Origin: Escherichia coli
GTDB lineage: Bacteria > Pseudomonadota > Gammaproteobacteria > Enterobacterales > Enterobacteriaceae
Assembly: GCF_048403405.1 (NCBI RefSeq)
Contig: NZ_CP183129.1
Reading direction: 5' to 3' (one strand)
DNA length: 64,000 nucleotides
The position numbers and the translations under genes are program-made. The notes beneath the pieces are model-generated. The model was not told the origin of the DNA. It saw only the letters and a program-made list of their open reading frames with translations, and did not search any database. Shown in pieces: positions 4,347-44,264 of this stretch; positions within the stretch are counted from its first letter, which is position 1, and the number at the start of each line of letters is the position of its first letter.

Positions 4347-5543
4347 ATGCGTGGAGAATTTTATCAGCAGTTAACCAACGATCTGGAAACCGCACGGGCG
4401 GAAGGGTTGTTTAAAGAAGAGCGCATTATTACGTCTGCGCAGCAAGCAGATATCACTGTGGCTGATGGAAGCCACGTCATTAACTTTTGTGCCAATAACT
4501 ATCTCGGACTGGCGAATCATCCGGATCTGATTGCGGCGGCAAAGGCGGGAATGGATTCTCACGGTTTCGGCATGGCTTCGGTGCGTTTTATTTGCGGCAC
4601 TCAGGACAGCCATAAAGAGCTTGAACAAAAACTGGCGGCCTTCCTGGGGATGGAAGATGCGATTCTCTACTCTTCCTGCTTTGATGCTAACGGTGGCCTG
4701 TTTGAAACGCTGTTGGGCGCGGAAGACGCCATTATCTCCGACGCACTGAACCACGCGTCTATTATTGATGGTGTGCGTCTGTGCAAAGCTAAACGCTATC
4801 GTTATGCCAACAACGATATGCAGGAGCTGGAAGCACGTCTGAAAGAAGCGCGTGAAGCCGGTGCGCGTCATGTGCTGATTGCCACCGATGGTGTGTTCTC
4901 AATGGACGGCGTGATTGCCAACCTGAAGGGCGTTTGCGATCTGGCAGATAAATACGATGCCCTGGTGATGGTAGACGACTCCCACGCGGTCGGTTTTGTC
5001 GGTGAAAATGGTCGTGGTTCCCATGAATACTGCGATGTGATGGGCCGGGTCGATATTATCACCGGTACGCTTGGTAAAGCGCTGGGCGGGGCTTCTGGTG
5101 GTTATACCGCGGCGCGCAAAGAAGTGGTTGAGTGGCTGCGCCAGCGTTCTCGTCCGTACCTGTTCTCCAACTCGCTGGCACCGGCCATTGTTGCCGCTTC
5201 CATCAAAGTGCTGGAGATGGTTGAAGCGGGTAGCGAGCTGCGTGACCGTCTGTGGGCGAACGCGCGTCAGTTCCGTGAGCAAATGTCGGCGGCGGGCTTT
5301 ACCCTGGCGGGAGCCGATCACGCCATTATTCCGGTCATGCTTGGCGATGCGGTAGTAGCGCAGAAATTTGCTCGTGAGCTGCAAAAAGAGGGGATTTACG
5401 TCACCGGTTTCTTCTATCCGGTCGTTCCGAAAGGTCAGGCGCGTATTCGTACCCAGATGTCTGCGGCGCATACCCCTGAGCAAATTACGCGTGCAGTAGA
5501 AGCATTCACGCGTATTGGTAAACAACTGGGCGTTATCGCCTGA
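4347..5543 (+). CDS. kbl: 2-amino-3-ketobutyrate CoA ligase
   Basis: 398 aa PLP-dependent acyltransferase; divergent from hldD; followed by tdh. Confidence 0.95.
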
Positions 5544-24874: not shown

Positions 24875-24917
24875 TATTGATGCTCTCTATTCCTTGATAT
24901 AAGCGCAGAAGCTGCAT

Positions 24918-25601
24918 TTATTTTTTGTTTTTTCGCTGCCGAGTTTCAGCAGGTTGAACAGTGTCGAACTGGAGATTGGCCATATTGATGGACAACTTCA
25001 GATACTTCAGGTTATTAGGCGAAACGCCTTTTAATGTCAGATTAATGTCTTGCCATTGACCAGGCATTAATTGCAGAGTGGAATTCAGGGTGGTGTTGAA
25101 AAGTAATTGTTGCCACTTTGCCAGAGCTTTGGCATCGGCGGGTCTTTCATTGCCCCATGTCGCATGAAAGCCAATATTTGATACGGGAACGCTTAAAAGA
25201 TTAACCAGCGAAATACGAATAACACTGCCATTTTCCACCGCATCAATAGCCAGCACCCGGCCTGCCAAACCGACCGATCCGTTATTTATAATGAAGTATT
25301 GTGTTTGTGCTGGGTTAAATTCTGTAAAGACAAATTCGTCCTGCTTGTCTTTAACCGCTTTCACCACGCCAGCGAGCGTCTTGGTACTATTTATGACAGT
25401 AGTTTGTTGTTTTTCAAAATGTTCTATCTTGCGCTTATCGAGTTCCTGCTGTTTCTCAAGCGCCTCAATTTTGCTTTTTTGCAACTCTTGCTGTGTAACG
25501 AGTTCGTCGACCTTACTCGCTTTTTCAATATAGTCACACCCTGCCAATAAGCAGAGAGGCACTATTATTAACACGCTTAACAGTGTTTTCTTTAGGTTCA
25601 T
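24918..25601 (-). CDS. SadB-like lipoprotein, putative autotransporter biogenesis helper
   Basis: 227 aa; signal peptide with lipobox LLAGC; coiled-coil-prone N-terminal region; stop 43 bp upstream of the autotransporter start, same strand. Confidence 0.65.
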   Translation of the reverse strand: MNLKKTLLSVLIIVPLCLLAGCDYIEKASKVDELVTQQELQKSKIEALEKQQELDKRKIEHFEKQQTTVINSTKTLAGVVKAVKDKQDEFVFTEFNPAQTQYFIINNGSVGLAGRVLAIDAVENGSVIRISLVNLLSVPVSNIGFHATWGNERPADAKALAKWQQLLFNTTLNSTLQLMPGQWQDINLTLKGVSPNNLKYLKLSINMANLQFDTVQPAETRQRKNKK

Positions 25602-26161
25602 AGGATGAATTCCTTTTCATAATCCCGATACGTTGATAATTACAGTACAATCATTTTTTTTATGAATGATTAGAGTGGGGCATATCCGCCAAATAAATTT
25701 GTTAGAGAATTTTTGTATTAATGGGTTGTGCGAATATGTTTTTAAGTGTCAAACAATTTTAGTTTGTAGCCAATAAATAAATTGATCGCGCGGATTTTAA
25801 TGATCGGTGTCAATCAATGTCAAATGTTTCACCGGATAAAGGCCCGGGGCAGGGAAAGATAAATATTCAGTTGAGTGATGTTTTATTGCGAATTTTGCGA
25901 TGCTGATAGAAAAATTTAAATAATTAATTATGTTTCAAGCATTGATATGCGGCAATTCATTGTTAATATTGATACATCATTCTTTAATTTGTACCTGATT
26001 TTCAGAATTTAGCCTGCTCCGGGCGCTCAGAAGTGTAGGTGGAGTTAAATATATAATGTTAAGAACGTTATAAATATTCGATCTCTACAACAGGCTCCTG
26101 CATGTGCCAGCAGGAGCGAGTAAATCGTGAGTGGCTGTAATTACAGCGACGAGAAAGGAAC
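25602..26161. promoter_or_regulatory. AT-rich upstream region of the lipoprotein-autotransporter operon
   Basis: ~560 bp non-coding, strongly AT-rich with A/T tracts, immediately upstream of the lipoprotein gene; nucleoid-protein-bound regions look like this. Confidence 0.45.
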
Positions 26162-26524
26162 TTAAAACGCAGTCTTAGAGAACCCTGTCATCTCTTGTAG
26201 GCCCATTTCGCGGCCCAGCGCGGTCATTGGGTGCACAACGACCAGTCCGCGAACGCTCTTCTTCAGTTTGCCCATATCAGCTTGCTCTTTTTTAGTAATC
26301 GCGCGCTGGAACGGCATCTTCATCAGCTTCTGTGCTTCCTTACTGAGTTTCTGGCTGTGAACTTCGCGCAGGCGAGCAATTTCTGCTTCCAGAGTGGCTT
26401 TCTCTTTTTCCAGTTCAGCATATTTGTCTGCGGCTTCAACCAGCGACAGATCGGCCTGCTGGTGGCGGATGGCGTCCAGGCGATCGCTGAGACGTTTGAT
26501 TTCGTTTTTTTCGACTTCTTTCAT
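26162..26524 (-). CDS. yibL: YibL, small ribosome-associated protein
   Basis: 120 aa; charged coiled-coil N-terminal half; K-12 yibL position. Confidence 0.85.
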
Positions 26525-26807
26525 GTGATGGCTTCTGATAAAGATAAATTTATAGCCCCTAGTATGCGCGACCAGGTGCTTTGTTCACAACTGATGACAT
26601 TGCAATAGTTCTATAACGTAAACATTAACATGCTTAAAAACTACGCAATTTATTGATTAATTAAGAAATTTAAAGAAAAAAGATAGTTAATAGAAACGGA
26701 TGATTATTGAGGATTGAGCACGTTTTCCTTAATGTCATTTATACCGGGATCTAAACTAAAATTGGCGGCCGCGCATTCCCGGCGCGGGGTAATACGGAGA
26801 TATCATC

Positions 26808-27017
26808 ATGGGCAAATTAGGTGAAAACGTTCCGCTTCTTATCGATAAAGCCGTAGATTTCATGGCATCGAGCCAGGCGTTCCGGGAGTATCTGAAAAAA
26901 CTACCTCCCCGTAACGCGATTCCGTCCGGAATACCTGATGAAAGCGTGCCGTTATATCTACAACGTCTGGAGTATTATCGTCGGCTTTATCGGCCGAAGC
27001 AGGTAGAGGGGCAGTAA
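26808..27017 (+). CDS. yibT: Small protein YibT
   Basis: 69 aa; K-12 yibT position between yibL and mtlR. Confidence 0.8.
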
Positions 27018-27038
27018 GCAGGCGTTGCTTACTTTTGG
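27014..27038 (+). terminator. Hairpin plus T-run at yibT stop
   Basis: Stem GTAAGCA/TGCTTAC, loop GGCGT, then TTTTGG; overlaps the convergent mtlR stop. Confidence 0.45.
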
Positions 27039-27616
27039 AAGGCTTTTTTTAAGCTGATTTTGGAAATCAGCTCTGTCAGTGAAAGGACCATTGTTGATCG
27101 CACAGCCTGTTGGTAACGCTGAATTTGCATTGCATACAAACTGGAGTCTGCAGGTTCAAACTGTGGCGGCGGTGGTAACGCCGCCACGCAATGCAGTTCA
27201 CCAAAGGGTCCAAGGATTTCGTCGTCGGTAAACGCGTACTCGTTGCCGTCGTGATTTAGCTCTTCACGCAATGCCATCAGCAGTTCCGCATCTTCGTATT
27301 CCTGGCGGTTAATGACACCCAACCCGTAAATGAGTTTTAAACGCACAGAAAGATCGCCCAGCGGACCGTCGCCGTCGAGTAACGGTTCTACAGCATACTT
27401 CACCGCGTAATCGTCTTTGCGGAATACCTGAAGCACCAGAAGATTTACCGCCTCGGTCAAAAGCTCGACGGCGGTGATCAGAAAGCTTCGCACGGTTTTG
27501 CCAGCATTCAGACGCTCAAGCACACGGTTTTCAAAGGCCTGGGTTTGTTCCATTGTTGCCTGCATATCTGACAATCTGTTATTCGGGCGCAGGGTATCCT
27601 GCGCCTGGTCCACCAT
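27029..27616 (-). CDS. mtlR: Mannitol operon repressor
   Basis: 195 aa; last gene of mtlADR. Confidence 0.9.
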   Translation of the reverse strand: MVDQAQDTLRPNNRLSDMQATMEQTQAFENRVLERLNAGKTVRSFLITAVELLTEAVNLLVLQVFRKDDYAVKYAVEPLLDGDGPLGDLSVRLKLIYGLGVINRQEYEDAELLMALREELNHDGNEYAFTDDEILGPFGELHCVAALPPPPQFEPADSSLYAMQIQRYQQAVRSTMVLSLTELISKISLKKAFQK

Positions 27617-31673: not shown

Positions 31674-32810
31674 ATGGATCTATTGATTGTTTTAACTTAC
31701 GTGGCGCTGGCGTGGGCGGTCTTTAAAATCTTCCGCATTCCGGTGAATCAGTGGACGCTGGCGACGGCGGCGCTGGGAGGCGTGTTTCTGGTGAGTGGTT
31801 TGATTTTGTTGATGAACTACAACCACCCTTACACTTTTACCGCGCAAAAGGCAGTGATAGCGATCCCCATCACGCCACAGGTGACGGGAATTGTTACTGA
31901 AGTCACTGACAAGAATAATCAGCTTATTCAAAAGGGCGAGGTGCTTTTTAAACTCGACCCGGTTCGTTACCAGGCGCGAGTTGACAGACTTCAGGCTGAC
32001 CTGATGACGGCGACGCATAATATAAAGACGCTGCGCGCGCAGCTCTCTGAAGCGCAGGCCAACACCACCCAGGTTTCAGCGGAGCGCGACCGTCTGTTTA
32101 AAAATTATCAACGTTATCTGAAAGGCAGCCAGGCGGCGGTGAATCCGTTCTCGGAACGTGACATCGACGATGCGCGGCAAAACTTCCTCGCGCAGGACGC
32201 GCTGGTGAAAGGCTCGGTGGCGGAGCAGGCGCAGATCCAGAGCCAGCTCGACAGTATGGTTAACGGCGAGCAATCGCAGATTGTGAGCTTAAGAGCGCAA
32301 CTTACTGAAGCAAAATATAACCTTGAGCAGACTGTCATTCGCGCGCCGAGCAATGGCTACGTTACTCAGGTACTGATCCGCCCAGGTACATACGCAGCTG
32401 CCTTGCCGTTGCGTCCGGTGATGGTTTTCATCCCCGAGCAAAAACGGCAAATTGTCGCCCAATTTCGGCAAAACTCGCTGTTACGTCTGAAACCCGGCGA
32501 TGATGCGGAAGTGGTGTTTAACGCGCTACCTGGGCAGGTGTTCCACGGCAAACTGACTAGCATTTTACCTGTCGTGCCAGGCGGTTCTTATCAGGCGCAG
32601 GGGGTATTGCAATCATTAACGGTCGTGCCCGGCACGGACGGTGTGCTGGGAACCATTGAACTGGACCCTAACGATGATATCGATGCCTTACCCGACGGCA
32701 TCTACGCCCAGGTGGCGGTTTACTCCGACCATTTCAGCCATGTTTCGGTGATGCGGAAAGTGCTGCTAAGAATGACCAGCTGGATGCATTATCTTTATTT
32801 GGATCATTGA
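31674..32810 (+). CDS. yibH: HlyD-family membrane-fusion-like protein
   Basis: 378 aa; N-terminal TM helix, coiled coil, beta-barrel region; 3 bp after yibI; paralogue of yiaV. Confidence 0.85.
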
Positions 32811-33267
32811 GGGGGGCGGGGGAGATTATGGAACTTTGCTCCCTGCAAGGACTAATTATTTTTGCATATTATTTCATCGGCTGTGATGATTTTTCGTTAA
32901 TATCCATTATGTTAAGAAGTTCGGGATGAGTGTGAACTCATTGGATTTTTTATCCGTCTTGATCTGCCGAAGGATCAGACTATACATTGTCGAGATCGCA
33001 ATGATGATATGAGTTGTTCCTCTGCCACGGCTCTAATCAAAAAAGAGCAGGAGTGCTTTTCCATCTATTGCGATGATGGCTTTATTATCTGAAGGATGAC
33101 AGTCACATTTAAAAATATTTAATTTATAGATCACAATGTAGGTTCATGTAATATATGTATACAACTATTTTTCTCTTCACTTTTAATTATCGTATTCATT
33201 ATAACACTAAGTTAAAAAAACTCCTGGAGAGTGAGTTATTAATATGTTTTTAAATATAATTAAGTTA

Positions 33268-33789
33268 TTATTCATCGATGCATTTTATAGAATCATCAAT
33301 GGCTACAATAGTACTATTAACTCTCCAATTTATATTTTTATTATCATTGCAAATATTAACTGAATCTATATCAATGATTTTTTTATTTTTATCTTTTATT
33401 TTGTTTACAGTTTCAATGCAATCAGCGACAAGTTGGTGTGGATTTAGATTCTTCAGATATGGTCTTATGATCTTTCCCTTGCTTAATAAATAGCATGTAT
33501 AGGATTCGGAAAGTCCAGCATCTATTTTGTACATCATTATTCTAGATAAGGATGTGAGAAATGCCTTGTTATCATTAGCAGCCATATATGCCAGTCCGAG
33601 TTCAGCCTCTGCGGCTTTACATGAAAAATAGCTAAGTGAACACGCTTTTCGTCCCTCTTGGGTACTGGCTGATATTAGTGCCCATAATATTGCCTTGTCT
33701 GCCAAATCCAACTCTCTCTGAAATTGGTTTACAGTAACTGCATTCGCAGAAATAGAGAAGAAAAGCACAATTGTTAATAACCTTGTCAT
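33268..33789 (-). CDS. Exported Cys-containing protein of unknown function (candidate orphan immunity protein)
   Basis: 173 aa; signal peptide with likely cleavage after ANA; 7 Cys; very AT-rich gene between the Rhs module and yibH. Confidence 0.5.
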   Translation of the reverse strand: MTRLLTIVLFFSISANAVTVNQFQRELDLADKAILWALISASTQEGRKACSLSYFSCKAAEAELGLAYMAANDNKAFLTSLSRIMMYKIDAGLSESYTCYLLSKGKIIRPYLKNLNPHQLVADCIETVNKIKDKNKKIIDIDSVNICNDNKNINWRVNSTIVAIDDSIKCIDE

Positions 33790-34157
33790 ATTTCTAGTCC
33801 GTCACTGTTAATGTGCTATCTGGCTCTGAAAATATTAGCTCATTTAATTTTTGCATGTCATTAGATGAACCAGTTATACAACCCTCGGAACAGAATCGAG
33901 GTCCTAAAGATGGACCAAAAGCGTTTAAACAACTATGTGTTAAAAATCCATCACGATTATACGTTTCTGTATTTGCTGACGGTACTAAACGTATACCATT
34001 AGGTTTTCTATTGGTTGCTCCAGGACTGTTAAGCAAGCCTCGTCCGGTTTGCTTCATTGAGTTCTCCACTTTAGACTATTGGACTATCTTTCAACATGGC
34101 ATCGCCTTAGTATACCGCTGGTTTTCCGCTCATTGTTAATTTTCTCTTTCGTTCATT

Positions 34158-34568
34158 TCACTTAATTTTCAGTTTTTTCCAAAAGTCAATATTCCCTTCT
34201 AATAAAATTTTTTCTATGGAATCTTCATTAATTTTATTATTAGAGCATATGACATTATCTTGAACGCCATATGACACCACCCCGTTTTTATCAATATAAT
34301 ATCTGTCTTTACCATCAATAATATAAATCCTAACATTTTTATCATCAAAATGGTAACACTCATTACTAGACCTGTTCAGTAACATTAATAACTTCTCACG
34401 ATTTATCTGTAATAATTTTTGTGCACCATCTTTTATTGCAAAATTTTCAATTTTACTTTTAGTGACAGGGGAATATGTTTGGATGCGAAAAGGCATCCTA
34501 TAATGGAAAACATCAGCTATACAGCAAGATGAAAAAAATACGGAAATAAAATACAGACATACTTTCAT
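34158..34568 (-). CDS. Putative exported immunity protein cognate to the Rhs C-terminal toxin
   Basis: 136 aa; hydrophobic N-terminus MKVCLYFISVFFSSCC; starts 57 bp after the rhs stop, same strand, with GGAG RBS; AT-rich like the rhs tip. Confidence 0.55.
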   Translation of the reverse strand: MKVCLYFISVFFSSCCIADVFHYRMPFRIQTYSPVTKSKIENFAIKDGAQKLLQINREKLLMLLNRSSNECYHFDDKNVRIYIIDGKDRYYIDKNGVVSYGVQDNVICSNNKINEDSIEKILLEGNIDFWKKLKIK

Positions 34569-34625
34569 ACCATCTCCTAAACTGGTGATATATTAAAAAC
34601 ATACCCAAAAGCAATATAAAAATGT

Positions 34626-37600
34626 TTAATATTTCATTCTTGCTGGCAAGCCCAACTCTTTACGAAATGGGTTTTCATATTTATCAACATTAGCCATCGA
34701 GTCAGTTCCATCGTCTTTCATTCCCTTTGCATGCCCCATTTCATGCGCAAGAACCACACTCAACAGAGTGGGTTTCATGGCACATGCTTTGTTTTTTCCT
34801 TGATATACACATGAGCTATGGTCGTTATCAATATCAATGTAAAAACTATATTCAGTATCATCGTAGCATGTTTGGTTTATGCCTTTTCTTAATCCTCTAA
34901 ATATATATTCATGCTCTGATGACTCTAATTCTTCTGTTATTTTATGTCCAAACTTTGTTTCTGCTACAGCTTTATATGCTTCTTTTAAAGTTTTTTGTGT
35001 ACTTTCATCTCCCTGAAAAGACACTTTTAACCCTAATGGATCGAAACCAGATACCGGATTCAACGGATACTGATAAAAATTCCATCCCCCCTTAAGCCCA
35101 ATCGGATCCTGAGTGATATACCGCCCCTGCAGCGGGTCATAATAGCGGTGGCGGTTGTAATAGAGGCCGGACTCCTCATCATACTGCTGACCCGGCAGGC
35201 GGATGAGCTGCTGCAGCTGGTGCGGGTTCTCTTCATTCAGCAGGTTGCCCCATTCATCGTATTCTGCGCACCATTCTGTTGCCCCTTCCGTGCTGACAAG
35301 CGCCAGCGGCAGGCCGCGATGGTCGCAGTGGTACAGGTGGATTTTTCGCGCCGGCGTGTACACCGGGTCCATCTGGTTTTGTATCTGCTCCACCGTCAGG
35401 CCGCACGATGCCAGCCAGCGGCGGCTTTCCTCACTCACCCGGTCAGCCAGGATTTCACTTTCCAGCCGGTCGAGCATCTGCACCAGCACCGGCGGGAACA
35501 CCACACTGCCACCGTCTTCACCGCCGGACTGCTGAAGCGCATCCGCCAGGCTGCGGCGCTGCGTTTTCGCCAGCTCACCGGTGGCAGTTTCAACTCTGAT
35601 GAGTGGCGTGAAGCTCCCCGGCTGATAAACCGTCTGGATGCGGGTTCTGTCGTTCTGTATTGTGGTCAGCCGGTCGCCGTCCCAGCCGTACCAGGTCACT
35701 TCCGGTTTCCGTGACAGCGACATCCAGCCCGTCAGGTCCCGTTCACGCCGCCACACCCGTTTTGCCACCCTGCGGCCCAGCGGGTCGTAAAGATAGCGAC
35801 TTTCGACCAGCGGCTCTGCATATTGTGTCCGCGTGTAGTGCACCAGCCGGTGCCGGCTGTCGTAATGGTACCGGTGAGTCCGCTCATCATCCGTACGGAT
35901 AACCCCTTCCGGGATGAGGTCGGTTTTCTCCGTCAGCCTGCCGTGACGGTCATACCGGTAAAGATAGTGCGCGTCACGGGCGATACGGTTATCCGGCCAC
36001 ATGCTGAGGGTGCTGTCCGGGTGCAGCTCCGGGTCGGGCAGGCGGTTACCTGCCGGGTCCGTGGCATACGGGATGCGGATATCCAGATTCGCTGCGGTGG
36101 TGTGGACGCCGGTCAGCCTGCCGGTGTCGCTGTAGCTGTAACTCCGGGTCTGGCGCGGGCTGCTGATGCGGATGAGTTCGCCGTTGTCGTTCCAGGTGTA
36201 ATCGCGGTCATACTGCAGGCTGTTCAGGTGCTGGCTCTGTAACTGCCCGGCAGAGGTGTAAGCGGTGGTGAGTTCATAACGGCCGAAGCTGCGCAGCGTT
36301 TCCCGGTGCAGGCGGTCGCGGGTGAAATCCACCAGCGGTGTGTCGCCGAGTTTCATGCCTGACAGCCAGCCGCTGCCGTAGGTCAGCCATTCCACGGCGG
36401 GCAGGCTGTCCGGTATACAGCGGTTCGCCAGTCCCTGCGCGTTGTACGCATGTCTGGTTTCATGCTGCCAGAGCAGTGCTTCCGTCTGCGGGTGATGCAC
36501 CGTCTGGCGCTCACCGGTCAGGCGGCCTTTCTCATCATACCCGTAATGCACCGTCACCCGGTGGCCTTCGCTGAGATGGCTGATGCCTGTCAGCCAGCCG
36601 CGTTCGTCATACTGCCACTGCTCTGCAGGTTCACCCTTCACGGTGCGGTGAGTGAGGCGGTCTGCTTCGTCATAGTGCCAGTGGGTGACCAGCCCCTCAT
36701 CCTCGCTGCGGATAAGTTTACCGGTCAGGTCGTGGTGATAACGCTGTGTGCGGCCGTCAAAGCCGGTTTCCTGTATCAGCCGGTCAAGTACATCGTAACG
36801 GAAGGTGGTGTGGCTGCCGTTTTCACTGGTCAGGCGGATGACCCGCCCGGCAGCATCGTATTCCATACTGCGCGTCAGACCGCCCTGCGTGGTACGAACG
36901 GGCTTTCCCCACGCATCGTACTGTGTCCCGTTTCTGCTGCCGTCCGGGGCAATGACGGCGGTCAGGTCACCGGCGGCGTTGTATTCATACCGCGTTTCAT
37001 GGCCCTGCGTGTCTTTCACCGCAATTAACTGTCCACGGCTGTCGTATGCGCGGTACTGACTCAGCCCTTCCTCGCGGTGCACCGCCGTCACCTGACCAAA
37101 ACGGTCATGGTCATAACGGGTTACATAACCGGAACAGTCAGTGACGGTCAGCAACTGACCGTAACGGCTCCATGTCATGGTTTTCCGGCTGCCGGTGGCA
37201 TCTTCCGTTGCGCAGGGTAAGTCACTGTGTGGATTATCATAACGGTAGCGGGTGATATCGCCGTTGTGTGCGGTTTCCTGAATCAGACGGCCGGATTCAT
37301 CATATTTGCGGCGCAACTCCAGCCCGTCAGTCCCGGTGGCTGACGTTAACTGGTTGTGGTGGTTATAGTAAAATGCCGATGCCCTGCCATCCGGTGTGGT
37401 GATGCGCGTGATGAGTCCCGTCACCACATCCGGGCTGTACTCAGTCGTCCGGCCTGCGGCATCCGTCTGTGCCTTAAGCCCGCCCACCGCGTCAAACTGA
37501 CTCTGCGTGACGCTGCCGTCCGCGTGTTCCTTTTTCACCACCCGCTTCAGCCCGCCTTCGCCCTGCGTGTGCAGCACTTCACGGCGGTCCAGACTGTCGG

Positions 37601-41082: not shown

Positions 41083-42923
41083 TTATTGCGACTGCCGGAC
41101 ACGTTGACCACGGCAAAACAACCTTATTGCAGGCGATTACTGGCGTAAATGCCGACCGTCTGCCGGAAGAAAAAAAGCGCGGCATGACCATCGATCTCGG
41201 TTATGCCTACTGGCCGCAGCCGGATGGTCGCGTGCCTGGTTTTATCGACGTACCCGGTCATGAAAAGTTTCTTTCCAACATGCTGGCGGGCGTTGGTGGT
41301 ATCGATCACGCGCTGTTGGTGGTGGCGTGCGATGACGGCGTGATGGCTCAGACTCGTGAGCATCTGGCGATTTTGCAGCTGACCGGTAACCCGATGCTGA
41401 CAGTGGCGCTGACCAAAGCCGATCGCGTGGACGAAGCGCGTGTTGATGAGGTTGAACGCCAGGTAAAGGAGGTGCTGCGGGAATACGGTTTTGCTGAGGC
41501 AAAACTGTTTATCACCGCAGCAACCGAAGGTCGGGGAATTGATGCCCTGCGCGAGCATTTGCTTCAGTTACCAGAACGTGAACACGCCAGCCAACATAGT
41601 TTCCGCCTCGCGATCGACCGTGCATTTACCGTAAAAGGTGCCGGGCTGGTCGTCACCGGTACGGCGTTAAGCGGGGAAGTGAAGGTAGGCGATTCACTCT
41701 GGCTGACTGGTGTAAATAAACCGATGCGTGTACGTGCGCTGCATGCACAAAACCAGCCAACAGAAACCGCCCATGCCGGGCAGCGTATCGCGCTTAACAT
41801 CGCGGGTGATGCGGAAAAAGAGCAGATTAACCGTGGCGACTGGCTGCTTACCGATGCGCCGCCGGAGCCGTTCACACGGGTGATTGTCGAGCTTCAAACC
41901 CATACACCGCTGACCCAGTGGCAGCCGCTGCATATTCACCACGCCGCCAGCCACGTCACGGGACGCGTTTCGCTGCTGGAAGATAACCTTGCCGAGCTGG
42001 TATTCGACACGCCGCTGTGGCTGGCGGATAACGATCGCTTAGTGCTGCGCGATATCTCGGCCCGCAACACGCTGGCGGGGGCGCGTGTGGTGATGCTTAA
42101 CCCGCCGCGTCGCGGTAAGCGTAAGCCGGAATATCTGCAATGGCTGGCGTCTCTTGCACGAGCGCAGAGCGATGCCGATGCGTTATCTGTTCATCTGGAA
42201 CGCGGAGCGGTTAACCTTGCAGATTTCGCCTGGGCACGGCAGCTCAACGGCGAAGGGATGCGCGAACTGCTGCAACAGCCTGGCTATATTCAGGCTGGTT
42301 ATAGCTTGTTGAATGCGCCGGTTGCCGCCCGCTGGCAGCGGAAAATTCTCGACACATTAGCGACTTATCATGAGCAACATCGCGATGAACCTGGTCCTGG
42401 GCGCGAACGTCTGCGACGTATGGCGTTGCCAATGGAAGATGAAGCGCTGGTACTGTTGCTGATTGAAAAGATGCGCGAAAGCGGCGACATCCTCAGTCAT
42501 CACGGTTGGCTGCATCTGCCGGATCATAAAGCGGGCTTCAGCGAAGAGCAGCAGGTCATCTGGCAAAAAGCAGAGCCGCTGTTTGGTGACGAACCGTGGT
42601 GGGTGCGTGACCTGGCAAAAGAGACGGGAACCGACGAGCAGGCAATGCGCCTGACGCTACGCCAGGCGGCGCAGCAGGGGATAATTACCGCGATCGTTAA
42701 AGATCGTTATTACCGTAACGATCGGATTGTCGAGTTTGCCAATATGATCCGCGATCTCGATCAGGAGTGTGGTTCAACCTGCGCGGCGGATTTCCGCGAT
42801 CGCTTAGGTGTAGGCCGAAAGCTGGCAATTCAGATTTTGGAATATTTTGACCGCATTGGCTTTACGCGTCGTCGTGGAAATGATCATTTATTGCGCGACG
42901 CATTATTATTTCCGGAAAAATAA
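41079..42923 (+). CDS. selB: Selenocysteine-specific elongation factor
   Basis: 614 aa; N-terminal GTPase motif [11 protein letters not shown] and winged-helix C-terminal extension. Confidence 0.95.
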
Positions 42924-42982
42924 GGAAATGATTAATTAAGTTTTAAAATAAATTAATACAAAATTCTTATGAATTTAAAAAA

Positions 42983-43018
42983 AGCACATTGTTTAATGAA
43001 TACAATGTGCTTTTTATT
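42983..43018 (+). terminator. Rho-independent terminator after selAB
   Basis: Stem AGCACATTGT/ACAATGTGCT (10 bp), loop TTAATGAAT, then TTTTATT. Confidence 0.7.
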
Positions 43019-43112
43019 AGATTAATTTTGATAATCAATAATACTGATCATATTTTCAAATGAAAATCCTCAGTAAGCTGCCCGCCCTTTTTTACACTTT
43101 CAGGAGTGTGTT

Positions 43113-44264
43113 ATGGCAGCTTCAACCTTTTTTATTCCTTCCGTGAATGTTATTGGTGCTGATTCATTGAATGATGCAATGAATATGATGGCAGATTATG
43201 GATTTACCCGTACCTTAATTGTCACTGACAATATGTTAACGAAATTGGGTATGGCGGGTGATGTGCAAAAAGCACTGGAAGAACGCAATATTTTTAGTGT
43301 TATTTATGATGGCACCCAACCTAACCCCACCACGGAAAACGTCGCTGCAGGTTTGAAATTACTTAAAGAAAATAATTGCGATAGCGTGATTTCCTTAGGC
43401 GGTGGTTCTCCACACGACTGCGCAAAAGGTATTGCGCTGGTGGCAGCCAATGGTGGCGATATTCGCGATTATGAAGGCGTTGACCGCTCTGCAAAACCGC
43501 AGCTGCCGATGATCGCCATCAACACCACGGCGGGTACGGCCTCTGAAATGACCCGTTTCTGCATCATCACTGACGAAGCGCGTCACATCAAAATGGCGAT
43601 TGTGGATAAACATGTAACTCCGCTGCTTTCTGTCAATGACTCCTCTCTGATGATTGGTATGCCGAAGTCACTGACCGCCGCAACGGGTATGGATGCCTTA
43701 ACGCACGCTATCGAAGCGTATGTTTCTATTGCCGCCACGCCGATCACTGACGCTTGTGCACTGAAAGCCGTGACCATGATTGCCGAAAACCTGCCGTTAG
43801 CCGTTGAAGATGGCAGTAATGCGAAAGCGCGTGAAGCAATGGCTTATGCCCAGTTCCTCGCCGGTATGGCGTTCAATAATGCTTCTCTGGGTTATGTTCA
43901 TGCGATGGCGCACCAGCTGGGCGGTTTCTACAATCTGCCGCACGGTGTATGTAACGCCGTTCTGCTGCCACACGTTCAGGTGTTCAACAGCAAAGTCGCT
44001 GCTGCGCGTCTGCGTGACTGTGCTGCTGCCATGGGCGTTAACGTGACAGGCAAAAATGACGCGGAAGGCGCAGAAGCCTGCATTAACGCCATCCGTGAAC
44101 TGGCGAAGAAAGTGGATATCCCGGCAGGCCTGCGTGACCTGAACGTGAAAGAAGAGGATTTCGCGGTACTGGCCACCAATGCCCTGAAAGATGCGTGTGG
44201 GTTTACTAACCCGATTCAGGCAACTCACGAAGAGATTGTGGCAATTTATCGCGCTGCGATGTAA
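43113..44264 (+). CDS. yiaY: Iron-containing alcohol dehydrogenase
   Basis: 383 aa group-III Fe-ADH. Confidence 0.9.

Follow-up and report, generated by a model that had tools for sequence, protein, structure and literature searches.

The AT-rich yibL-sadB spacer of Escherichia coli as a probable regulatory region of an H-NS-silenced adhesin operon

Introduction

What is contained in the long AT-rich stretch that separates yibL from a trimeric autotransporter adhesin operon in Escherichia coli, and how might it keep such an operon quiet? Aggregation, biofilm formation and binding to the matrix are all promoted by adhesins of the UpaG/EhaG/SadA type, which are nevertheless silent in culture. 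This silence has been described for sadBA, for which the native inducing conditions are not known (Grin et al., PMC3953254). The initial annotation of the locus, made from the sequence, viewed the stretch as a long leader with the character of an H-NS silencing region and proposed that a hairpin at its yibL-proximal end terminates yibL.

The locus, the structure of the operon and its control by H-NS have already been published, so that the finding in its essence is already known. The gap is a known kind of H-NS-silenced adhesin promoter, and the accepted picture is unchanged. Added here are a comparative placement of promoter and leader, evidence of selection on the hairpin, and one conserved motif (25998-26009) that falls outside the explanations tested. 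The promoter, the leader of about 187 nt, the yibL hairpin and the conserved box provide concrete targets for reporter and mutagenesis work.

The locus and its boundaries

In the window (the whole stretch of 64,000 nucleotides that was analysed, to which all positions refer), the minus strand carries mtlA, mtlD, mtlR (27029-27616), yibL, a gene for a lipoprotein of 227 aa and a gene for an adhesin of 1742 aa, in this order, with yibT (26808-27017) on the plus strand. According to the open reading frame list, a Pfam match (PF10928, E=6e-32) and the RefSeq annotation of an identical locus, yibL (26162-26524, minus strand) encodes a ribosome-associated protein with a DUF2810 domain. It is the upstream neighbour of the gap, lies on the same strand as the adhesin operon and has a GC content of 0.51. 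The lipoprotein gene (24918-25601, minus strand, GC 0.42) encodes a DUF3251 protein of the SadB type, an inner-membrane lipoprotein that corresponds to c4423 in CFT073. Its product matches the structure of Salmonella SadB (PDB 4C47, E = 1.5e-70), and its signal peptide ends in an LAGC lipobox with D at +2. The adhesin gene (19646-24874, minus strand, GC 0.53) follows after a spacer of 43 nt and belongs to the UpaG/EhaG/SadA family of trimeric autotransporters, with the Pfam domains ESPR, YadA_head, YadA_stalk and YadA_anchor.

The position of the locus between the mtl and lld operons is the one described for sadBA and upaG. In RefSeq records with an identical spacer, the genes between yibL and lldP are annotated as encoding one DUF3251 and one YadA-like protein, and in CFT073 the same position holds the DUF3251 gene C_RS20890 (old tag c4423) adjoining upaG. 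With the SadB structural match, the YadA-type domains and the mtl-lld position, the gene identities proposed at the outset proved right. The cassette is a member of the sadBA operon type, as a SadB orthologue immediately precedes the YadA-type adhesin gene at the mtl-lld position. In Salmonella, sadB and sadA likewise form an operon between mtl and lld, with a 44-bp spacer compared to the 43 nt found here (Grin et al. 2014, PMC3953254).

The gap itself had been estimated at about 560 bp, and this is exact: positions 25602-26161 are the 560 bp between the stop codon of yibL and the start codon of the lipoprotein gene. Its GC content is 0.35 (0.32 without the yibL flank) against 0.51 for yibL and 0.514 for the 64-kb window, so that it is indeed far more AT-rich than the flanking core genes; no more than 3.9% of the 560-bp windows across the 64 kb are equally AT-rich. 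Other spacers in the window reach the same level, for example the yibL-yibT gap at 0.31-0.35. The composition is uneven, and three parts can be distinguished: a yibL 3' flank of 72 bp (26090-26161, GC 0.53), AT-rich upstream DNA of 266 bp (25824-26089, GC 0.335), which is a proposed upstream H-NS binding region, and the promoter together with its leader, of which the leader covers 186 bp (25602-25787, GC 0.29). Beyond the gap, the AT-rich patch extends into sadB. The description of the gap as full of A/T tracts holds weakly. Mixed A/T runs of at least 8 or at least 10 are mildly enriched (p about 0.02-0.04), whereas homopolymer A or T runs (at least 4, 5 or 6) do not exceed the level of mononucleotide shuffles (p = 0.27-0.57).

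A recognisable allele of the spacer was found in 1880 of 5426 complete E. coli genomes, with allele classes at ≥99%, 95-99%, 90-95% and about 68-70% identity; the junction of the K-12 type is present in 1261 genomes. Between allele classes, identity amounts to 94% for yibL and 86-89% for sadB, and to 66-68% for the spacer after the hairpin, including the AT-rich upstream DNA (25824-26089). For comparison beyond the species, a profile search of genome contigs with a SadB alignment returned 10 loci and missed Salmonella; the Salmonella and E. fergusonii loci were added by exact-protein look-up. The relatives added in total were E. fergusonii, S. enterica, Pseudocitrobacter, C. youngae and Enterobacter wuhouensis. 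Long AT-rich DNA of 284-560 bp with a GC content of 0.29-0.36 separates yibL from sadB in Escherichia, Salmonella, Pseudocitrobacter, Citrobacter and Enterobacter.

The closest described relative is the upaG/ehaG region of CFT073 (c4423-c4424), also known from EHEC (Totsika et al. 2012), which shares the locus and the gene order. Its leader of 558 bp is 92.9% identical to the one analysed here and contains the same hairpin and the same TTGACA-18-TAAAAT block. The cassette is nevertheless another allele, with amino acid identities of 86.8% for SadB and 77.6% for the adhesin compared to UpaG. A second close system is Salmonella sadBA. It has the SadB orthologue, the mtl-lld position and a long AT-rich spacer (526 bp, GC 0.31) in common with the E. 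coli locus, and a TTGACA-17-TAGCAT promoter lies at the aligned position. However, its spacer can be aligned only at the promoter hexamers, the AATCTGAAAA motif and the ribosome-binding site, and its yibL-proximal hairpin has a different sequence.

A conserved predicted promoter and its leader

A consensus scan predicted a sigma-70 promoter at 25794-25823 on the minus strand, with the -35 hexamer TTGACA (25823-25818), a spacer of 18 nt and the -10 hexamer TAAAAT (25799-25794). The hexamers match 11 of the 12 consensus positions, a quality reached in 4.5% of dinucleotide shuffles of the gap. The comparison between lineages points in the same direction. None of 8 divergent lineages deviates from TTGACA, which ranks first among the conserved hexamers of the spacer; TCTGAA, TCATTA (which overlaps the -10), AAAGGA (at the ribosome-binding site) and the hairpin stem come next, in this order. 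Among E. coli alleles, E. fergusonii, S. enterica and Pseudocitrobacter, the -10 reads TAAAAT, TAGAAT or TAGCAT and the spacing is kept at 17-18 nt, with varying sequence in between. Hexamers and spacing that are kept while the sequence around them drifts are the footprint expected of a promoter.

Transcription from this promoter would start near 25787 and give rise to a 5'UTR of about 187 nt. No experimental transcription start of sadBA was found in the literature surveyed. The predicted 5'UTR (25602-25787, minus strand) is the most AT-rich part of the gap and is proposed as a downstream H-NS binding region. The term long leader, as originally applied to the whole stretch, thus fits in part: about 187 nt are probably transcribed, and the rest consists of upstream regulatory DNA and the yibL 3' flank. 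At the end of the leader lies the Shine-Dalgarno sequence AAGGA of sadB (25611-25615, minus strand), whose AGG is invariant in 13 of 13 aligned sequences; the surrounding AAAGGA is the fourth most conserved hexamer. An inverted repeat, AATCATT-CATAAAAAA-AATGATT (25649-25671, minus strand), also lies in the 5'UTR, and folds as an A/U stem of 7-8 bp; most E. coli alleles keep it, and Pseudocitrobacter keeps part of it.

Two other modes of control were considered for this region and rejected. An RfaH-dependent long operon would carry an ops element in its leader, and none (GGCGGTAGnnTG at up to 2 mismatches) occurs on either strand of 25602-26161. A phase-variable promoter does not fit either, since tandem repeats are absent from the gap and neither the A8 run in the 5'UTR nor the Dam sites (GATC) by the -10 are conserved between alleles.

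The yibL-proximal hairpin and possible read-through

The yibL 3' flank contains a conserved G+C-rich hairpin, GCUCCUGC-UGGCACAU-GCAGGAGC on the yibL sense strand (26094-26117, minus strand), which lies 44 nt after the yibL stop codon. As RNA it folds into a stem of 8 bp, 6 of them G:C pairs, with a loop of 8 nt, and the 106-nt segment that holds it is more stable than shuffles (z = -2.8). The CTCCTGC/GCAGGAG hairpin reported initially at about 26100-26122 is real, although the arms as written occupy 26095-26116, about 5 nt away.

The alleles provide evidence that the hairpin is under selection. Within E. coli it is 96-100% identical among alleles whose flanks are 60-68% identical, and the O145-type allele keeps it though the preceding 44 nt are only 60% identical. 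Among other genera, clear homology is restricted to Pseudocitrobacter, where the hairpin carries one compensatory C:G to U:A change and is followed by a UUUUGUG tail. In C. youngae and Enterobacter this position is occupied by different hairpins with U-rich tails, whereas those of Salmonella and E. coli E69 are G+C-rich and lack such a tail.

Compared to Rho-independent terminators, the E. coli element shares the G+C-rich 8-bp stem, the 8-nt loop, the location 44 nt past a stop codon and the conservation, and both its Pseudocitrobacter homologue and its counterparts in Citrobacter and Enterobacter look canonical. It differs in the tail, CUGUUGUA, where 4 of the 8 nt that follow the stem are U, and for this reason it was not called by a terminator scan. 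A further difference is that yibL of K-12 has another, canonical terminator. This second element is found in the present locus after the adhesin gene (19587-19622, minus strand), as indicated by alignment with the yibL-lldP spacer of K-12 and by the fold of the K-12 copy, which sits directly after yibL. The proposal that the hairpin terminates yibL is consequently supported by its position, its conservation and its U-tailed positional counterparts, and weakened by the lack of a U-tract in E. coli. It is probably either a non-canonical yibL terminator, that is one without a U-tract, or a stabiliser of the 3' end. It is best read as a weak or factor-assisted terminator or as such a stabiliser.

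Since the hairpin has no U-tract, transcription of yibL may read into the gap. Carried further, this leads to an alternative in which the hairpin does not terminate at all, yibL, sadB and the adhesin gene are co-transcribed, the 560 nt form a true leader, and H-NS together with Rho acts on elongation instead of initiation. The three genes do lie on one strand, the terminator scan passed over the hairpin, and the only canonical terminator on this strand follows the adhesin gene and is the one found at the end of yibL in K-12. Against such an arrangement stand the near-consensus promoter inside the gap, which is conserved across genera, and the U-rich tails that the corresponding hairpins carry in Pseudocitrobacter, Citrobacter and Enterobacter. 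In addition, sadBA is silent in culture whereas yibL, annotated as encoding a ribosome-associated protein, is presumably expressed. Full co-transcription with yibL is for these reasons considered unlikely.

Probable silencing by H-NS and StpA

The initial annotation stated that UpaG/EhaG expression is repressed by H-NS, and this is borne out by secondary citations of Totsika 2012. Two papers cite that study for the repression of UpaG by H-NS, and one of them for the derepression of upaG upon deletion of hns. Occupancy data exist for the orthologous locus of strain CFT073 in a table by Hustmyer et al. 2022, whose values are given per gene (here c4423). According to this table, the sadB orthologue c4423 (684 nt) is among the H-NS-bound genes in ChIP-seq, with an H-NS occupancy of 0.51 in the wild type versus 0.07 in an hns stpA double mutant (Hustmyer et al. 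2022). StpA occupancy of c4423 is listed as 0.48, and the gene is classified as StpA-bound (Hustmyer et al. 2022). upaG (c4424) is not among the H-NS-bound matches listed in that source (Hustmyer et al. 2022), which fits the GC content of 0.53 of the adhesin gene. Together with the AT-richness of the gap, the occupancy by H-NS and StpA and the derepression in hns mutants at the CFT073 locus support the view of an H-NS-type silencing region, and we infer that the contacts include the intergenic DNA. A possible means of relief is indicated by TosR, a regulator of the PapB family that is predicted to act against H-NS and to have AT-rich DNA as its target; upon its overproduction, c4423 (C_RS20890) increased by a log2FC of 5.1 (Luterbach et al. 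2018).

Searches for more specific signatures of H-NS binding in the gap gave less. No site with up to 1 mismatch to TCGATAAATT, the motif for high-affinity nucleation of H-NS, was found there. Near-matches numbered 4 at up to 2 mismatches (1.3 expected, p = 0.054) and 22 at up to 3 mismatches (9.8 expected). The four best of them flank the promoter, two (25774 and 25780) by the predicted start and two (25891 and 25907) some 70-90 bp upstream of the -35. Curvature had been suggested as a check, and the outcome was negative: neither predicted curvature nor A-tract phasing was greater than in composition-matched shuffles. A wedge model returned a mean of 7.6 and a maximum of 20.3 degrees/turn for the gap against 8.0 and 20.1 for the shuffles, and AA/TT periodicity at 9.5-11.5 bp was likewise not above shuffled sequence. 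Curvature or phased A-tracts are frequent in H-NS-silenced promoter regions, though they are not obligatory. AT-richness is thus the only clear computational sign of an H-NS region here.

Based on these observations, the gap can be regarded with good, if incomplete, confidence as the composite regulatory spacer of an H-NS/StpA-silenced sadBA adhesin operon of the upaG/ehaG type. In the proposed arrangement, the hairpin in the yibL-proximal 72 bp would most likely end or stabilise the yibL transcript. The remaining AT-rich DNA of about 490 bp would be built around a single sigma-70 promoter that produces the 5'UTR of about 187 nt and 29% GC before sadB. A filament of H-NS and StpA would coat the AT-rich patch on both sides of this promoter and continue into sadB, covering about 1.2 kb (24.9-26.1 kb), and such coating would keep sadBA silent under laboratory conditions. 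Expression would then depend on the removal or displacement of H-NS, which an AT-binding counter-silencer could bring about, for example.

In this respect proU resembles sadBA as an H-NS-silenced promoter with regulatory elements both upstream and downstream. Like bgl and proU, the sadBA region places a good sigma-70 promoter within AT-rich DNA that extends to either side, has a long transcribed leader that is itself AT-rich, and is released from silence when H-NS is lost. In the bgl arrangement two H-NS sites are described (PMC9678765). sadBA differs from these systems in that its best motif matches have 2 mismatches, its predicted curvature stays at the level of its composition and its H-NS sites are proposed only.

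Alternatively, the composition could be that of an ordinary intergenic or promoter region, with silence resulting from the lack of a specific activator and H-NS binding being incidental. The similarly AT-rich spacers elsewhere in the window, such as the yibL-yibT gap, and the lack of any excess in curvature or A-tracts would agree with this, and the conserved motif at 25998-26009 could be the site of the missing activator. Against it, deletion of hns alone derepresses upaG, as cited from Totsika 2012, and the ChIP signal of c4423 in the table of Hustmyer et al. is lost in the hns stpA double mutant. The gap of 560 bp is also unusually long, and both length and AT-richness are kept across genera. 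An incidental role of H-NS is consequently improbable, even more so than unbroken transcription from yibL.

A hidden gene or a foreign origin as unlikely alternatives

A long spacer may also conceal a gene of its own, be it a small protein, an sRNA or a cis-acting element such as a riboswitch or RNA thermometer. Seven open reading frames of 21-38 aa lie in the gap or overlap it, and strong conservation marks the 70 nt that precede the sadB start codon, among which an inverted repeat lies. In divergent alleles, however, these reading frames are interrupted by stops or frameshifts, and none stays open. The RNA side of this explanation fares similarly: the fold of the 5'UTR is no more stable than that of shuffles (z = -0.32), which leaves no case for a thermometer or riboswitch, and Rfam returned no match at the gathering threshold in six related loci and only chance-level matches (E above 2) to eukaryotic snoRNA and U4 at a permissive threshold on 24800-27100. 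Tandem repeats, which were looked for in the gap, are lacking as well. A hidden gene is therefore regarded as very unlikely.

Least probable of all is that the AT-rich DNA was left behind by a foreign island acquired recently. The segment is absent from K-12 and has a recognisable allele in a minority of the complete E. coli genomes (the 1880 mentioned above). However, the gene order recurs, together with a spacer that is just as AT-rich, in Salmonella, E. fergusonii, Pseudocitrobacter, Citrobacter and Enterobacter, which indicates an ancestral arrangement. K-12 carries a deletion at the sadBA locus (Grin et al., PMC3953254), and its terminator matches the one after the adhesin gene.

A conserved box upstream of the promoter

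One element is not accommodated by any of these explanations. About 180 bp upstream of the -35, the motif AATTCTGAAAAT (25998-26009, minus strand) is conserved across genera, and its TCTGAA (26006-26001) ranks second in conservation (0.98) among the hexamers of the spacer when 8 divergent lineages are compared. It is covered by none of the explanations tested and has no place in the silencing model. When the conserved blocks were compared by eye with consensus sites, no convincing match was seen to those of CRP, FNR, IHF, Fis, Lrp and RcsAB, nor to those of OmpR, CpxR, PhoB, NagC/Mlc and sigma-54. A second promoter at this conserved box, AATCTGAAAAT, was considered and rejected: its TAAATT/CATAAT/TATAAT part resembles a -10, but by eye no -35 or TG extension accompanies it in any lineage.

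Perhaps the box binds an activator or counter-silencer that opens the H-NS-coated sadBA promoter when the natural inducing condition arises, with a possible contribution from incomplete termination at the U-poor hairpin of yibL. This is a speculative reading, to which only a small likelihood is assigned. If true, leakage through the hairpin would couple expression of the adhesin to transcription of yibL, the gene for a ribosome-associated protein.

A smaller palindrome, GCTGTAATTACAGC (26134-26147, minus strand; inverted repeat I4), with a stem of 5 bp, lies closer to yibL in its 3' flank. In allele L011 the same place is taken by GGCGUUGUAAUCACAACGUC, which forms a longer stem.

Allelic divergence of the sadBA cassette

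The sadBA cassette, which comprises the sadB lipoprotein gene (24918-25601) and the UpaG/EhaG/SadA-type adhesin gene (19646-24874), is a mosaic with very divergent alleles within E. coli, as seen when sadB and the AT-rich leader that separates it from yibL (together 24918-26161) are compared with loci L001, L004, L006 and L024 from other genomes. Leader identity between allele classes is 66-68%. L001 has a leader 100% identical to that of the window, yet its SadB is 98.2% identical, and in CFT073 a leader identity of 92.9% accompanies amino acid identities of 86.8% for SadB and 77.6% for the adhesin. The lowest SadB alleles (strain E69, Shigella type) share approximately 62-65% amino acid identity. 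The neighboring yibL (26162-26524) has a nucleotide identity of only ~94% to four other E. coli strains at 99-100% protein identity, a synonymous divergence that is high for a core gene.

Sequence elements of the leader

A box, AATTCTGAAAAT with the core AATCTGAAAA (25998-26009, minus strand), is conserved across genera upstream of the predicted promoter. It is kept in Escherichia, Salmonella, Pseudocitrobacter and partly in Citrobacter, within AT-rich DNA that is otherwise unalignable, and its hexamer ranks second in conservation in the spacer. The box is without a -35 partner, and no match to a known binding site was recognised. Between the -10 element and the predicted start lies a G+C-rich discriminator, CCGCGCG (25788-25794), which is common to most E. 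coli alleles examined and to Pseudocitrobacter. Discriminators of this type are typically seen in ppGpp/DksA-sensitive promoters.

A direct repeat, ATTG(A/T)TTGACAC, occurs twice on the sense strand, 61 bp apart, with one copy within the promoter spacer (25807-25818) and the other at about +35 in the 5'UTR (25746-25757). Together with the -35 element this makes three copies of TTGACA. The repeat pair could be a pair of repressor sites or could have arisen by chance.

Deletion in K-12 and an apparent rearrangement

A canonical terminator follows the adhesin gene (19587-19622, minus strand), and its K-12 counterpart lies directly 3' of yibL. The K-12 yibL terminator is the adhesin-gene terminator of the window (5125-5165 in comparison locus L003), and the K-12 loss extends from ~4 nt past the yibL stop codon through the 3' end of the adhesin gene. 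The K-12 DNA between yibL and the terminator resembles either a decayed vestige of the adhesin's C-terminal coding sequence or else a REP-like element.

In E. coli 24AR0376 (locus L009, 3288-4130) IS1 adjoins yibL, only window positions 26033-26086 of the leader remain, and sadBA is replaced by a fimbrial usher/chaperone cluster, an arrangement that looks like an IS1-mediated rearrangement within the leader. Contigs L012, L013 and L015, from metagenome-assembled genomes that carry the labels Oscillospiraceae, Collinsella and Bacillota, encode SadB with 68-98% amino acid identity to that of the window, and L012 and L013 additionally encode an identical YibL; all are most likely mis-binned Escherichia.

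Further strongly AT-rich patches lie within the window at 1-1380, 32711-35100 and 42751-43460. The patch at 33-35 kb, where GC content falls to 0.20, adjoins genes that the matching RefSeq record annotates as encoding an Imm57 immunity protein and an RHS core protein.
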